Shown here: positions 29,225 to 48,561 of the stretch, piece by piece
How the letters are laid out: every line of letters begins with the position of its first letter
How positions within the stretch are numbered: the stretch's first letter is position 1
DNA from: Lingula anatina
Taxonomy: Eukaryota > Animalia > Brachiopoda
Reading direction: 5' to 3'
Assembly (NCBI GenBank): GCA_051362555.1
Contig: CM120641.1
Coordinates: 34,292,401-34,356,400 of the forward strand
DNA: 64,000 bases
Translations under genes and position numbers: made by a program
Notes under the pieces: generated by a model
Seen by the model: only the letters and a program-made list of their open reading frames with translations
What the model was told of the DNA's origin: nothing
Database searches by the model: none

Positions 29225-31571
29225 TTAGGACCGACGGTGTAAAACCGGTCGGCGAAGCACTGGCTGTTCTCTAGCACGTAGACGTCTGGCAGGATGGCGA
29301 AATTGTGGGCAGGATGGTGCTGGCTGCTGTGGTGGTGTTGGCACTAAAGGTGGCAAGAACCTGTCGTTCTGGTGTTGCCTGATGGTTGCGCTCTGGCGAG
29401 TCACTGGCCTGGCTTGTGCTGATGCAGGTGCTGGGGTCGCGGGTCTCAGGGGTGGCACATATGGTGGTGGGAGGGCACCTGCGGCTGGTTGCTGTGGTGG
29501 TGTTGGCACTAAAGGTGGCAATAACCTGTTGTTCTGGTGTTGCCTGGTGGTTGCGCCCTGGCGAGTCACTGGCCTGGCCTGTGCTGATGCAGGTGCTGGC
29601 GTCGCGGGTCTCAGGGGTGGCAGAAATGGTGGTGGGAGGGCACCTGCGGCTGGTTGCTGTGGTGGTGTTGGCTCTAAAGGTGGCAATAACCTGTTGTTCT
29701 GGTGTTGCCTGGTGGTTGCGCCCTGGCGAGTCACTGGCCTGGCTTGTGCTGATGCAGGTGCTGGCGTCGCGGGTCTCAGGGGTGGCAGAAATGGTGGTGG
29801 GAGGGCACCTGCGGCTGGTTGCTGTGGTGGTGTTGGCACTAAAGGTGGCAATAACCTGTTGTTCTGGTGTTGCCCGATGGTTGCGCTCTGCCGAGTCACT
29901 GGCCTGGCTTGTGCTGATGCACTCGCAAAAGCAGGTGCTGGTGTCGTGGTTCTCATGGGTGGCAGAAATGATGGAGTGAGGGCACCTGCGGCTGGTGGTG
30001 TCGGTGAGCCTTGTCTGCCGTTTGGACTACGCAGAGCGGTTGCTGCCTCTGGCTGGTGAGGTGTGGTAGTCAGGCGTGGCAGAGAGTGTGGTGTCTGGCC
30101 GTTGACGGAACCAGGCCTAGTGAATACCGACTCTTGCCGTACAGGTCTTGGCGTCAGGGGTGTGAGGGGCGGCAGCAACGATGGCGGAAGGGCACCTGAG
30201 GCTCTTGGCAAGTCCTGTCTCAGATTTAGACTATGCAGAGGGGCCATTGCCTCTGGCTGGCGAGGTACTGCAGCCAGGCGTGGCAGAGAGAGTGGTGTCT
30301 GCCAGCTAACGGTACCACCCCTAGTGGATACTGCCTCTAAACTTGCTACTGCTGGTGTCGATGGTCTTAGGTGTGGCAGATATAGTGGTCTCTCTCCGTG
30401 GCATGGTCTCCACTGACTTGTGGCCGTTTCTTGCAGAGGAGCTGAAGTCTGCTGTGGTGGAAACTGTAGGGTCAGCATGCGATCATGAGTACTCTCAGTG
30501 TGCACTCTGATTTTAGGGGGTGGGGATGGGACCAGACTTGGCATAGCCTGTGCTGCAAGGCCACTTGGGGGAGTCCGTATACCAGTCTTTTCATCTTCCT
30601 GTGGAGTGTCAGACTCCGGCAGATGCTGCAATTGTTGCTCGGCATCTGGGTTTAACTCGGCCACTCTGAACGCTGCGCGTGCCCTTCGTATGGAGGCGAG
30701 TGTTTTTATACATGTCAGATATTTGGGACATGGTCTTTGCTGAATTGGGGCAGGCTCCGAGGGTGGACAAGGAAGTTTGGTGTCGCTGCTTCTGCAGACC
30801 TGCTTGTGAGCAAGGTTAGGCGGTGCGGGAGCCGCTGAAGTGGATGATAGAGCCAGTGCCCGATGTACTGCCCTGGAGTATATTTCTGACCTGAGGCTGA
30901 ATCTAGTGGGAGTATCTTGTACCGAGTTGGGGATCTTAGCTGTTCTTGGTCTGGAGCTTGATCCGTTACAAGCTGACGACGGTAGAGGCGCCTGTGTCCG
31001 CCTAGGGATCCTTGAAGGAATTGCTGCCGACTTGGCATTATTTTGTGCTGGGCTGGTGACCCTGGATGCTGTGCGGCTTGAACCAGCAGCACTTGGCGGG
31101 CCGGTAGCAATATGTGTCGGCGCGGGAATCCTCGATGGTCTGAGACCATGCCCAGTAGCACCCTTCGGCTGAGGCTCAATAACAACAGAGGCCAGCCCTG
31201 GAGTACTTGATGGTCTGCGTGGCCCGTCAAAGCCAGGTGCTAGAAGAGCGTCTTCTTCTTTCTCATCGGGCACATTACCCAATGCGTATACCCAGAACTT
31301 CGCCGTCTTTAATTTCTTGTCAAGCTTGCGAATATAAAGAGGCAACGGCTGTGTATGTATCTTTTTTCTTTTGTCTGGAAAAGTAAAAACATTGTTTTTG
31401 TTTATAGACAAACTGTTGCCACTGGCCTTTCTCTGTACAAAATTTGAGTTTTTAACAGTGTATAGGCCATTTGGGTATCTACGTACGTATATTGTGTGCT
31501 AAATGCGAAAGCGTGCAATAATGAGTGTGCCCTACGTGTTCTAAGATATGTAATGAAGCAAAATTCCATTC

Positions 31572-37984: not shown

Positions 37985-38550
37985 TGCCACCTCTCCAATG
38001 AAATGGACTCATCTGACATCCCCTTCAATAGAATGGACTTAATTCACCTATCACCCTCGAATGGAATGGACTTGCCCAACCTGACACCCCTTCTGATCAA
38101 ATTGCCTCGTCCCACCTGACACCCCTAATTTTGAATGGACTTGCCCCACCTGACACCCCTTCTGATCAAATTGCCTCGCCCCACCTGACACCCCTTGTTT
38201 GGAATGGACTTGCCCCACCTGACACCCCTTCTGATCAAATTGCCTCGCCCCACCTGACACCCCTTGTTTGGAATGGACTTGCCCCACCTGACACCCCTTC
38301 TGATCAAATTGCCTCGCCCCACCTCACACCCCTTGTTTGGAATGGACTTGCCCTACCTGACCCCCCCCCCCTGTAATAGAATGGACTCGCCCCACTTGAC
38401 ACCCCTTTCCAATGGAATAGGCTCGACCCACGTGACACCCCTCAAATGGAATAACCTCGCCCAACCTGACACCCCTCAGATGAAATGGACGTGGTAAACC
38501 TGACTCCTTTTTCAATGTTATGAACTACAATGGAATGGACTCACTCCACC
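37985..38550. repeat. Minisatellite with a 69-bp dimeric unit and degenerate ~32-35-bp monomers on the flanks
   Basis: ggaatggacttgccccacctgacaccccttctgatcaaattgcctcgccccacctgacaccccttgttt repeated about 4 times (period 69, e.g. 38201 to 38270). Confidence 0.92.
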
Positions 38551-41859: not shown

Positions 41860-42055
41860 GCTGAAAAACTAAAGGGTTAAAAACCATAGATTATTCATAT
41901 GCAGGAAATCGTCAGTCATGTGCAGCCCCCCCCCCCCCCCCCCAAAAAAAAAAAAAAAAAAAAACATGGGCAAGCAATTCATTCAAAGGTGCCTAGGTAA
42001 AAGTTAACACCCATTCACACAGAGACAGTATATATCCTGAAACATTTTTTCAGTC

Positions 42056-42374: not shown

Positions 42375-42664
42375 TGGCTCCCCTAAATTGTGAAAGCAAT
42401 TTACACAATATACACTGTTTACCTTATCATTACGTATAAAAAATATTTGCTCGGAAATTATTAAGAATTACCGTACCTTAATCAACTTTAAGGAACATCA
42501 AAACTTACTGTTAATTACTGTATTTAAACATAAAATACCTTGCAATCCCATAAACACAAATAGCCCAACATTTAACTGTCTTTAGAAAACAAAAGTGTTC
42601 ATTAAATCTACACAAACTGTAGCATAGAATCATAACAAACTAACACTATTGTCACAGTTAACAG

Positions 42665-45600: not shown

Positions 45601-47812
45601 CCATGATTGCTACTGGCTGCTCTCTAAACCTCAATAAAACACCTATGAGCGAGTTATTCTGATCAGGTCCTTTCAACAGGCAGTCGTTTAGCGCAACATT
45701 TTCATGTTTTGCACTGGCATCAAACACCACTCGTAATTTCTCACGTTTTTTGGGGTGATATACACCATGATGTGGTAAGTACCAACCTCCATCTTCATGA
45801 GGTGATTCTTCTGCATAGCATTTATCTATGAGGTCCTGCATAAAACTGTTATAGTGCTCATAATACTTCGGGTTGTGGATTAGCCTTTTCCTTAGCTGCT
45901 CTAGCCTGATCTCAGCTGCTGGTTTGTTGTTTGGCAATGCTGGATGTCCATCTTTAAATGGTAGTGGCATCTCATAAAAACCCTCGTTGAAATGTATGCC
46001 TTCCTCCATAATCTTCATGAACTTCTGGTCTTGAAGGCTTAACTTCTCATCTTTCTGTTGGTCGAAACCTTGGTCAAAGAGACTGCAAACCTCAGCGGGG
46101 CTGATCTCTGTCACTTGTGTTCTAAAGGCAAAGGCATGTGTTCCAAAGCTCTTGTTCTCATCTATGGGTCTTGATTTGTCCACTGGCCCTACTATACCCC
46201 AACCTAGGTTACATCTGTATGCATATGGCTCCTCTCCTCTACCATGTATGTACTCCAGACCTCTAATGGCTTTCATACAGTTTACTCCCAACAGCAGTCC
46301 TACCTCTATGTCTGGGCGATAAGGAGTAATCTTATCAGCAATTGAGTGCAAGTGTGGCCATTTCTTAGCAGTTTCTGGTCTGGGTATCTGTGATCGCTTA
46401 ACTGGAATGGAGTCTCTGGAGTATGTATCTGGGAGCTCAATCAATGTCTCTTGGTTCAGACCTCTCACAACAAGTCCTCTAACTTTCCTGCTCGGGACGG
46501 TTTTTTCTCCAAGTATGGTTGAAAGTCTGATGTCTACATGCTTCCCTTTACATTCGAGTTCACTGAGGGTCGAGGACTTTACAAAGCAGGCATCTGACTG
46601 CTCGTCTAGTACTGCATATACCACTGAATAAATGTCTGGATTATCCTCGTGGTGTACTACAACTGGCACTATCATGGAATGCACATTCTCAGAACTGTGG
46701 GTGGTATGGCATACAGCTGCTCCCACTACTTTACTAGTGTAATTGTCATCATGTAGAATTGTTGGATGATAAGAGTTACATTTTTGGCATTTCATTTTAC
46801 TTCTGCATTCATGTTTTCTGTGACCATATGCAAGGCACCCAAAACATAACCCATTATTCTTTATAATGCCGATTCTTTCATCCATTGTCTTTTCTTGCAT
46901 TTCTGGGCATTGGTGAAGTTTATGTTGTTCCTTGCATAATATACACTTGTGAACGTGTCTTTCGTTGCTGGATGCAGAGGCACTAGACAGTACTGTTTGT
47001 GCTGGAACTCTTCTCCTTGGTGCTGGTATAGGTCTCTCTGGTGGCGGTGGAACCTTTCCAAAAATGGGGTCAGCCAATTTTCGTGCTTCTTTCTGCACAA
47101 AATCGACGAAAACCTGAAAGGTTATCTTCTGTCCCCTTTCCTTCCTTTCATATACTATGCTTCTCCATTTATCATGCAATTTGAGCGGCAGCTTCGTCAT
47201 TAGCCTCTTAAGGTTATCGGGATACTCGAGGACTGGAATGGCATCTATTTCTTTTACTGCATATTCACATTCCCTTAAAAATATGCCGTATTTGTCTAAT
47301 GCGACATAATCATCATGCTTTATCACTGGCCACTGTAAGGCACGGTTTATATACGATGTCGCAATCTGTTCTTGGTCCCCATACCTTCTCTCAAATTCCT
47401 TCCATGTGGCCTTGAAACCAATGGATGCATCTAAGTGAGCGAATCCTAGCGTAATTTCATGAGGCTCACCTCTGGTGTATTGCAGTAGATAGTTCAGTTT
47501 TTCATCGTCAGAGTCGCATGTTTCTATGATTCTACTTTTGAACTGTCTCTTAAACAGCACATATTTGATCGGGTCACCTTCAAATACTTGAATCTGAATT
47601 CTTGGTTTACTGAGTTCCTTTGCTATCGTAGTTTGCTCACACAAAGTGAGTGGGGCACAAGATGTTAGTGTGTTTTTGGGCGTAGATGTCTTTTTTATGT
47701 TTGACTTTGTGAAGTTAAAATGCCTTTCTAACTCACGCATGGTTTGGTCTATATCCGACTCTACCCTTTTTAGTTCTGCTTGGAGAAGTATCATTTCTGC
47801 TTGTGTTGCCAT
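42665..47812 (-). CDS. Gag-Pol polyprotein (1715 aa): Gag with three Cys/His knuckles, protease, RT, RNase H, integrase
   Basis: Knuckles CILCKEQHKLHQC, CFGCLAYGHRKHEC, CQKCNSYHPTILH; protease AVLDEQS; RT WYLPHHGVYHPKK, LRVVFDAS, FYVDD; RNase H HFSDAS; integrase H-x4-H…CVTC, DFFGPF, DRGTNF, GGVWERM. PR-RT-RH-IN order; no env. Confidence 0.97.
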   Translation of the reverse strand: MATQAEMILLQAELKRVESDIDQTMRELERHFNFTKSNIKKTSTPKNTLTSCAPLTLCEQTTIAKELSKPRIQIQVFEGDPIKYVLFKRQFKSRIIETCDSDDEKLNYLLQYTRGEPHEITLGFAHLDASIGFKATWKEFERRYGDQEQIATSYINRALQWPVIKHDDYVALDKYGIFLRECEYAVKEIDAIPVLEYPDNLKRLMTKLPLKLHDKWRSIVYERKERGQKITFQVFVDFVQKEARKLADPIFGKVPPPPERPIPAPRRRVPAQTVLSSASASSNERHVHKCILCKEQHKLHQCPEMQEKTMDERIGIIKNNGLCFGCLAYGHRKHECRSKMKCQKCNSYHPTILHDDNYTSKVVGAAVCHTTHSSENVHSMIVPVVVHHEDNPDIYSVVYAVLDEQSDACFVKSSTLSELECKGKHVDIRLSTILGEKTVPSRKVRGLVVRGLNQETLIELPDTYSRDSIPVKRSQIPRPETAKKWPHLHSIADKITPYRPDIEVGLLLGVNCMKAIRGLEYIHGRGEEPYAYRCNLGWGIVGPVDKSRPIDENKSFGTHAFAFRTQVTEISPAEVCSLFDQGFDQQKDEKLSLQDQKFMKIMEEGIHFNEGFYEMPLPFKDGHPALPNNKPAAEIRLEQLRKRLIHNPKYYEHYNSFMQDLIDKCYAEESPHEDGGWYLPHHGVYHPKKREKLRVVFDASAKHENVALNDCLLKGPDQNNSLIGVLLRFREQPVAIMGDMENMFHRFKVKEEDRKFLQFLWWKDGDLSSNPITYRMTSHIFGAISSPACALYGLRKLAEDYQDEYSPDVIAFLKNDFYVDDGLKSIESSEEAIRLVRETRELLNKGNLRLHKLVSNNREVMNTIPMSERAKEMRNIDLNRDTLPICPALGVQWCVEADSFQFKVQINDKPLTRRGILSTVSSIFDPLGLVSPFILAGKKILQELCRDGAEWDDQVPESIRCRWERWRSDLLNLTKLNIPRCYKPNDFGEVTTAELHHFSDASVEGLGQCSYLRLKSNTGRIATTLVMGKSKVAPSKPVTVPRLELSAAVMSIKVGTFLAKELEYEDITHVYWTDSKVVLGYVNNDAKRFHVFVANRIQQIREVSQPSQWRHVKSSDNPADIASRGTGVTELLQNEQWWSGPDFLRIDEPLSTTDTQFRLAPDDPEVRKSEVNVFATKVETNHDHLSDVLKRFSSWNRATRVVTWCLRFIQKLKQAKNRKSTQQNTVETSNEPLNVQEIQVAEKIILKSTQIATFEKEIAILKAINREDNSEHTERKQARYRNEQIKKTSSLYRLDPFLCEDGLLRVGGRIKRANLPRELTHPVILPKHHHVTNLIIDHYHTRCGHSGSGITLNEVRASGYWIISGRAKIGSYIWKCVTCRKLRANSQSQKMSDLPADRLEPAPPFTYSAVDFFGPFYVKEGRKQMKRYGAMFTCLASRAIHIEVAYSLSTDSFINCYRRFVCRRGPVRLLRADRGTNFIGVKGEQETAFMDMDQDKIRRELLKDHCDWIQFKMNVPHASHMGGVWERMIRSARNALSGLLTAHSDRLDDDSLSTLLTEAEAIVNSRPLTYIDTQSPDSPMPLSPNQLLTLKTKVVMPPPGNFIRKDTYLHRRWRHVQYLANEFWNRWRKEFLPTLQERKKWIKQCRDVQVGDIVLMIDDSAPRNQWPLGRIVETFQSADGYVRKVKLKVRDSTYERPVHKLILLLTGEDPVEEPK

Positions 47813-47836
47813 CTTTTCTAAATACTGTGCTGATCG

Positions 47837-47898
47837 TCTTTCACTAAATCGTCGCTCAGTTTCTACTATCTTTCACTAAATCGTCGCTGAGTTTCTAC
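47837..47898 (-). promoter_or_regulatory. Non-tRNA primer-binding region: two 30-nt copies (period 32) abutting the 5' LTR
   Basis: Sense strand reads GTAGAAACTCAGCGACGATTTAGTGAAAGA then GTAGAAACTGAGCGACGATTTAGTGAAAGA. No TGG start. Complementary to LTR positions 47969-47979. Confidence 0.7.
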
Positions 47899-48217
47899 TG
47901 TTACGAATAAGCAAACTTCTTTAGTCTTTTTCACATCTATTTTATTTGCTTGTCATTGAAATTGTCACGTAGAAACTGAAATGAACAAAATACATCAAAT
48001 TAAGAAATTATCCTTAAATTATGTTACAATTACAGCTTATAAAGTTCTTATTAACTGTTTAAATTACTAAATGATTCATAAAGTCTTACCTCATTGCGGG
48101 AATTAGTGTCTTTTAGTGATCAGAACATAACTAACTATAAGCGCGTGCTCTAGTCAAAAAAGTAAAACGCTATCTCCACCGATGTGCATAACAGCTAAGA
48201 CGGGCCAAACCTTAACA
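47899..48217 (-). repeat. 5' LTR, with an intron-like segment (48089 to 47976) and a poly(A) signal (47941-47946)
   Basis: Sense GAG|gtaagac donor, ttttgttcatttcag acceptor, and AATAAA about 30 nt after the acceptor. Confidence 0.95.
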
Positions 48218-48561
48218 CAGTCATTGATTTTGATTCACCTCTTCGCTTTTCATCTCTTGCTCTCGTCTCAGGTTTCGGCCTTCCATCATAGTAGTAGTAG
48301 TAGTACATGCCAAGTTAGTAAGTTAGTATATGCGACACTTTTGCAGACCCCCCCTTCCCCCTATTGACGTTTTGGACTCTTGATTTGCATGCTATGCTAA
48401 TACAGAATGTATAACAAAAATTGTAAATAGCAGTGCTAATTTCGTGCTACAGTACCCCCCCCCCCCCCCCCAATAACAACAAGTATTTGATTTCCCATAT
48501 CTCCCCCTTGCAGCATGCACGTCTGACAACTAAGGCAAAGTCATACTCAAACAAAACTTAC

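Follow-up and report, generated by a model that had tools for sequence, protein, structure and literature searches.

The locus considered here raises the question of how a BEL/Pao retrotransposon primes its minus-strand DNA when the leader following its 5' long terminal repeat (LTR) does not begin with TGG. The window (the whole 64-kb stretch of Lingula anatina DNA that was analysed) contains on its minus strand a BEL/Pao element of 6,162 bp in total. A preliminary description had noticed that the start of the leader was complementary to a stretch of the LTR, and had proposed that transcription starts within that stretch and that the transcript primes itself as in Tf1. According to the present analysis, this intact element probably does prime itself in a Tf1-like manner, by an RNA primer assembled via splicing and not by a tRNA; we infer both the cleavage that would release this primer and the priming itself. 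The element as a whole displayed the following features:

48217-47899, minus strand: 5' LTR, 319 bp, TG...CA, identical to the 3' LTR (comparison of the LTR pair).
42374-42056, minus strand: 3' LTR, 319 bp, with the same intron at 42246-42133 (comparison of the LTR pair).
48218-48222 (left) and 42051-42055 (right), minus strand: target site duplication GACTG, 5 bp (sequence).
47812-42665, minus strand: gag-pol open reading frame (ORF), unbroken, of BEL/Pao type, 1715 aa from its ATG (ORF and Pfam).
42378-42384, minus strand: polypurine tract AGGGGAG, 3 nt upstream of the 3' LTR (sequence).
47946-47941, minus strand: AATAAA poly(A) signal, 22 nt past the predicted primer end (sequence).

The insertion was considered recent because both LTRs were identical and a 5-bp duplication flanked the element. 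Within the ORF, DUF1759 (7e-08), Peptidase_A17 (2e-44) and DUF5641 (2e-29) scored above the Pfam cut-offs, which confirmed the BEL/Pao assignment made earlier, while RVT_1 and Integrase_H2C2 stayed below the cut-off, yet were placed in BEL/Pao order. A YVDD and three Cys/His motifs were also visible in the ORF. The closest annotated protein, from Lingula anatina, matched at 88 % across half of the region searched. Most relatives had a Gag N-terminus longer by about 100-280 residues than that of the element (47812-47600, minus strand), whose ATG lay only 86 nt after the LTR.

With its LTRs, a single ORF in an animal host, Pao-type Gag and Pol domains in the order Gag-PR-RT-RH-IN and a short polypurine tract, the 6.2-kb element resembled the Belpaoviridae of the ICTV, and its LTR length, total length, polypurine tract and target duplication agreed with the published ranges (LTRs of 0.2-1.2 kb, genomes of 4.2-10 kb; PMC8742986). 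In contrast, the 18-nt site for tRNA-Arg or tRNA-Gly given for that family (PMC8742986), which is a described trait and not the basis of the taxonomy, was encountered nowhere in this lineage: TGG was absent from the first 6 nt past the LTR in the element and in the 17 relatives scored with it (18 out of 18).

The first leader base after the 5' LTR was 47898, and the leader begins with GTAGAAACTCAGCG. Its nucleotides 1-9 were the exact complement of AGTTTCTAC (47977-47969), 70 nt ahead of the LTR end. Letters and positions of this match were as first described, and the same held for TCAGTT and for AATAAA, the latter 31 nt after the A. Dinucleotide shuffling of the LTR, repeated 20,000 times, gave a match of at least 9 nt at offset 0 in 59 cases (0.3 %), and at offsets 0-3 in 192 (1 %). 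The 9-nt level was reached at nine out of some 5,480 internal positions, four of these nine being the two primer binding site (PBS) copies. The AG of AGTTTCTAC, which had gone unnoticed, was the last dinucleotide of an intron lying within the LTR. The region around the primer was accordingly composed of the following parts (slashes mark splice sites or joints):

48134-48129, minus strand: tentative transcription start TTAGTT, Inr-like (reach of spliced reads).
48090-48107, minus strand: end of LTR exon 1; TGAG (48093-48090) is the 5' part of the predicted primer, the upstream bases a second, bulged helix (reads and folding).
48089-47976, minus strand: GT-AG intron, 114 nt, inside the 5' LTR, with donor GAG/GTAAGA, a T-rich tract and acceptor TTTCAG/ (RNA reads and splice scoring).
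47969-47975, minus strand: start of LTR exon 2, TTTCTAC, the 3' part of the predicted primer, with a putative cut after AC at 47969 (sequence and folding).
47875-47898, minus strand: candidate PBS, perfectly complementary to the spliced joint over 11 nt (47898-47888), with bulged pairing predicted to about 47875 (complementarity and folding).
47856-47866, minus strand: second PBS-like copy, product of a 32-nt tandem duplication (sequence).

When the LTR was scored for splice consensus, the donor was the best of 12 and the acceptor TCAG/TT the best of 21 AGs. RNA run X15 contained 12 reads, with 11 starts and one orientation, that joined 48090 to 47975 (region 46600-48400); these represent the sense of the element if the usual stranded protocol applies. 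The Inr-like TCAGTT is therefore the end of an intron and the start of an exon, because reads splice at its AG. X15 was the only one out of six RNA runs to display the joint, which was not listed in X12, X13, X16 and X17 (6-26 reads each); X18 had zero reads. Contigs from two DNA runs spanned the intron, and no joint was listed for them. The spliced reads were attributed to another copy of the family because they carried family variants and left the LTR into other DNA; this copy displayed a loose end at 47898 and was not observed entering the PBS. As contigs lose rare variants, the reads may also stem from an intron-less DNA copy. They covered no more than 44 nt of exon 1, and sense depth decreased from 14 at 48109 to 2 at 48134, which, for reads from another copy, faintly suggests a transcription start near TTAGTT, about 43 nt ahead of the donor. 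In the metagenome locus L017 (see below), exon 1 sequence extended over 83 nt; both lengths may tell against a primer formed by the very first bases of the RNA, as in Tf1.

Splicing strengthened the predicted pairing. The spliced joint TGAG/TTTCTAC was complementary to the first 11 leader nt, compared with 9 nt for the unspliced LTR, and perfect pairing ended 4 nt into exon 1. Duplex energies were -20.2 kcal/mol for the spliced and -13.2 kcal/mol for the unspliced form. Folding of the spliced 5' end predicted the 11-bp helix at a probability of about 1.0, followed by bulged pairing to about 47875; the unspliced RNA was predicted to form the shorter 9-bp helix too, with a probability of 0.7-1.0 when the second leader copy was left out.

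The 32-nt tandem duplication of the leader start (47835-47898, minus strand) accounts for the coordinate 47837 at which the preliminary description began. Its first copy suited the spliced LTR and its second copy the unspliced one (11 nt, as against 9 nt with the spliced form), one base being decisive. A loose end at 47869 in DNA run X3 hinted at family members with a single leader copy. Second PBS-like copies were also encountered in relatives L026 and L049, and because these lacked the switch between spliced and unspliced forms, it is not claimed to be general. ARAGORN detected no tRNA within the 64-kb window, and the one Rfam match to a snoRNA at 47700-48300 (22.5 bits, threshold 50) was rejected as chance.

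Relatives were gathered with an alignment of 11 proteins as query. The best 80 of 226 metagenome loci and four loci from genome bins were retained, and these 84 loci formed 53 families at 85 % DNA identity; in a viral collection, 32 pattern matches were obtained, none of them a relative. Identity to the window element over protease and RT was 34-46 %. A quick tree, which omits L041, L026, L016, L044 and L053 and includes no named clade references, placed five distant Pao-domain proteins apart from the window element and its relatives with a support of 100, and split primers were spread over several of its branches. L081-L084 were BEL/Pao elements on contigs binned with bacterial genomes, into which animal DNA had most likely strayed.

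Fifteen of the 53 families had no 5' flank, 12 had a flank with an unrecognised LTR end or PBS, and 26 displayed a PBS. In 14 of these 26, the PBS matched the family's own spliced joint, with 4-6 bases from exon 1, 5-11 bases from exon 2, and letters that differed between families, as in these six:

L017: joint AGAT/TTTTCGTTAC, site GTAACGAAAAATCT.
L031: joint AAAC/TTTTCGAAAC, site GTTTCGAAAAGTTT.
L056: joint CAAA/TTCGAAC, site GTTCGAATTTG.
L047: joint CAAG/TTCTCAC, site GTGAGAACTTG.
L049: joint AATCG/TTGAC, site GTCAACGATT.
L033: joint CGAG/TTCGAC, site GTCGAACTCG.

L026 matched partially, with three exon-1 bases. An unsplit LTR complement of 10-11 nt was present in three families (L005, L019/L063 and L046/L070) and exact intron loss in a fourth (L077); because the primer is unsplit in these four out of 26, splicing is not required everywhere. 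Acceptor and PBS were found with no visible donor in two families, the PBS alone was visible in three, and two were degenerate (L062-L068 and L076). The unsplit sites (LTR ends L005:382, L063:1155 and L070:127) end in AC; a bulge of 3 nt comes next and then another short helix, as in the split families, and L019/L063 displayed an acceptor-like tract 20-40 nt downstream of the unsplit complement. L008, L012, L013, L016, L021, L044, L053 and L071 had upstream DNA with an unrecognised LTR end or PBS, and may be truncated, decayed or otherwise primed.

Covariation was scored on 18 hand-picked elements with visible LTR and leader, namely the window element, the 14 families above, L026, L068 and L076. 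The acceptor was the AG preceding the best PBS match (chosen by hand for L068 and L076), and in 17 out of 18 an independent pyrimidine score ranked it 1-4 among 12-61 AGs. The donor was picked blind to the PBS, on splice consensus alone; for L080 the 5' LTR was used, whose donor is altered. At least four matching exon-1 bases were obtained in 12 of the 18 elements, or 11 of 17 without the window element. Permuting exon ends among elements gave a mean of 1.5, and none of 20,000 permutations reached the observed value. With one element per exon-1 tetramer the result was 9 of 12 (0 of 20,000 permutations), and five of the seven families in which the 5'/3' repeat fixes the LTR end came to at least four bases (14 of 20,000); these trials are not fully independent because the families are kin. 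Guiding the donor by the PBS raised the count to 15 of 18. Exon 1 supplied no base in L068 and three each in L026 and L076, L060 was a mismatched copy, and the blind donor missed L045, L049 and L080 as well.

The pairing extended 0-3 nt into the intron in all 18 elements, and because it extended 0 nt in 7 of the 15 clean cases, the intron's AG was considered to lie outside the match. The 18 elements carried 16 different site strings; cross-matches between elements averaged 2.5 nt, and the 10 out of 240 pairs that reached 10 nt all had near-identical sites. The distance of the sites from the LTR end was 0-6 nt, and the 3' end of the primer was always AC. Scoring was limited to sites at LTR ends, because unanchored scans for splice joints gave many chance matches of 9-14 nt elsewhere. 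The leaders of L017, L023, L034, L031, L036, L056 and L080 displayed a spacer of 3-5 nt (TTC, TTTC, TTTTT) between LTR end and PBS. This spacer was absent from the branch of the window element; where present, trimming from the cDNA end would be needed. The covariation check proposed in the preliminary description thus uncovered compensatory change between PBS and LTR. Of its idea of self-priming, the pairing of the site with the element's own LTR was retained, while the 9-nt primer gives way to an 11-nt spliced joint as the likely partner.

Two loci displayed LTRs lacking the intron. In L017, a 117-nt GT-AG intron was missing from the 5' LTR and present in the 3' LTR, and the spliced-form 5' LTR was continuous with a 14-nt matching PBS and the ORF, on a contig of RNA or DNA origin. 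As judged from its sequence, this is the form that a spliced primer would need in genomic RNA. The 5' LTR of L077 starts with TG and is flanked by further DNA, and the intron of L080 and L034 was exactly missing from it; the PBS of L077 had one mismatch and its 3' LTR was incomplete. This loss is as expected from past copying of fully spliced RNA.

We lean towards extending the proposal to a large marine branch of BEL/Pao, in which the host spliceosome would assemble a primer that is split by an LTR intron, the spliced 5' R priming well and the unspliced 3' R passing the intron on. Transcription might begin about 43 nt before the LTR donor, and the 114-nt intron would then be removed, as was seen in reads from a family copy. 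TGAG/TTTCTAC, whose complementarity to the site at the LTR end is exact, is predicted to fold back onto it through the 11-bp helix and the bulged second helix. A nuclease, by analogy with Tf1 the RNase H of the element, would cut after the invariant AC, and the 3'-OH at 47969, facing the LTR end, would start minus-strand DNA there. The short DNA would subsequently jump to the approximately 50 nt of R (from the cut to the poly(A) site) at the RNA 3' end. Because the 3' R would usually keep its intron, both new LTRs would regain it, and only the 5' R copy, being spliced, would be marked as a strong primer. Splicing of the 3' R too would produce intron-less copies, as L017 and L077 suggest.

Four other explanations were weighed. 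It is unlikely, though the best of the four, that the conserved fold-back helix is structural or regulatory (packaging, dimerisation, control of poly(A) or translation, or a sensor of the splicing state) and that priming follows another route. Covariation by itself demonstrates pairing and not priming, several sites start like 5' splice sites (GTAAG, GTGAG or GTAGA), and exon 1 is seemingly longer than the Tf1 primer. However, the helix sits at the PBS position, where all 18 elements lacked a tRNA-type site, it has the polarity of a primer and a fixed AC end, and sites such as GTTTCG, GTCAA and GTTCG do not resemble donors.

Transcription starting from 47977, at the A of TCAGTT, so that unspliced RNA would prime with its first 9 nt just as Tf1 does, was the original proposal and now appears improbable. 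The 9-nt match does exist and its predicted folding probability is about 1.0, the second leader copy pairs with the unspliced LTR over 11 nt, and four families do have an unsplit primer. What speaks against it is that this site is a splice acceptor in use and the best-scoring one of the LTR, that the match in relatives enters exon 1 and not the intron, leaving the AG outside in 7 of 15 clean cases, and that no pile-up of read ends was found at 47977, where depth was low.

Equally doubtful is priming in trans, by which a short spliced LTR RNA, derived from solo LTRs or early polyadenylation and cut or trimmed to AC, would anneal to the PBS of another genome. LTR sequence was abundant in the DNA runs and the spliced reads came from a copy that leaves the LTR into other DNA (loose end at 47898), but folding predicts that the spliced 5' end pairs with its own PBS at a probability of about 1.0, and the spliced 5' LTR of L017 continues into its own PBS and ORF. 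Priming by a host tRNA fragment or other small RNA, with an incidental LTR match, is hardly credible despite the tRNA-Arg or tRNA-Gly given by the ICTV for Belpaoviridae (PMC8742986) and the half-tRNA priming known in Ty1/copia (accessible part of PMC6317226), since 16 different sites each track their own LTR joint and sites seldom match the joints of others (2.5 nt on average; 10 nt in 10 of 240 pairs, near-identical sites only).

Priming by the spliced joint of the element's own LTR was compared with known systems. In Tf1, according to the accessible parts of PMC7175516 and PMC4600332, the primer is made by an RNase H cut between bases 11 and 12. Tf1 and Tf2 of Schizosaccharomyces pombe, Tj1 and the Tf1/sushi group (Ty3/gypsy, Metaviridae) share with the present element the absence of a tRNA site and a PBS complementary to about 11 nt of their own LTR RNA; here the 11 nt are those of the spliced joint, with covariation in 14 families. 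They differ in that the present element belongs to another superfamily, displaying Pao-specific Pfam families instead of a Ty3/gypsy chromovirus polyprotein, and in that its primer is split by a spliceosomal intron and seemingly lies about 40 nt inside the RNA instead of forming the 11 bases at its start. Here the LTR is followed by a spacer of 0-6 nt, and the priming is predicted from sequence and RNA reads. The element is thus a member of BEL/Pao that is Tf1-like in its self-pairing and stands outside the Tf1/sushi group.

Self-priming is listed for Tf1/sushi, Tcn1 and TAR/Houba/Osr-1, and BEL/Pao does not figure in that list, in the accessible part of PMC6317226. For the Tcn1 chromoviruses and the plant Ty1/copia elements TAR/Houba/Osr-1 it was likewise predicted from complementarity between LTR and PBS, and the same part of that source mentions no LTR intron for them (PMC6317226). 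Fungal GalEa elements (Ty1/copia) also lack a tRNA site and display a conserved RNA pairing at the PBS position, the 'conserved hairpin site'; as far as the accessible part of PMC5445492 goes, that hairpin lies within the leader and no LTR complement was found, whereas here the partner is the LTR splice joint. Replication of BEL/Pao was called poorly understood in the ICTV profile (PMC8742986), the words primer, PBS, tRNA and intron are absent from the main text of two BEL/Pao surveys (PMC3118150, PMC6238403), and the Sinbad paper (PMC554778) does not mention PBS or tRNA. Neither self-priming nor an LTR intron in BEL/Pao was found in full-text searches of the main texts of open-access papers; an earlier mention elsewhere is possible.

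If the proposal is correct, self-priming would occur in one more LTR superfamily, the third, and take a form that the literature searched did not contain, with splicing producing the primer. Next to tRNA priming and the 5'-end priming of Tf1, it would represent a third way to prime, and retrotransposition would be subject to a splicing checkpoint. Mobility would be tied to host splicing, the persistence of an intron in a reverse-transcribed LTR would be explained, and PBS-based annotation would overlook such elements. Exact RNA ends are predicted: a cut after AC, with spliced RNA on the minus-strand DNA.

Elsewhere in the window, host exons were detected for the VPS13 family (PF25033; 118-714, minus strand) and for heparan sulfate N-deacetylase/sulfotransferase (PF25119; 63065-64000, minus strand). 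A Pro/Ala-rich open frame of 757 aa with internal repeats (29225-31498, minus strand) occupied a GC-rich patch, was overlapped by other frames on either strand and had no Pfam match. Positions 38020-38510 were occupied by a tandem array with a period of 69 nt and subunits of 33-39 nt.
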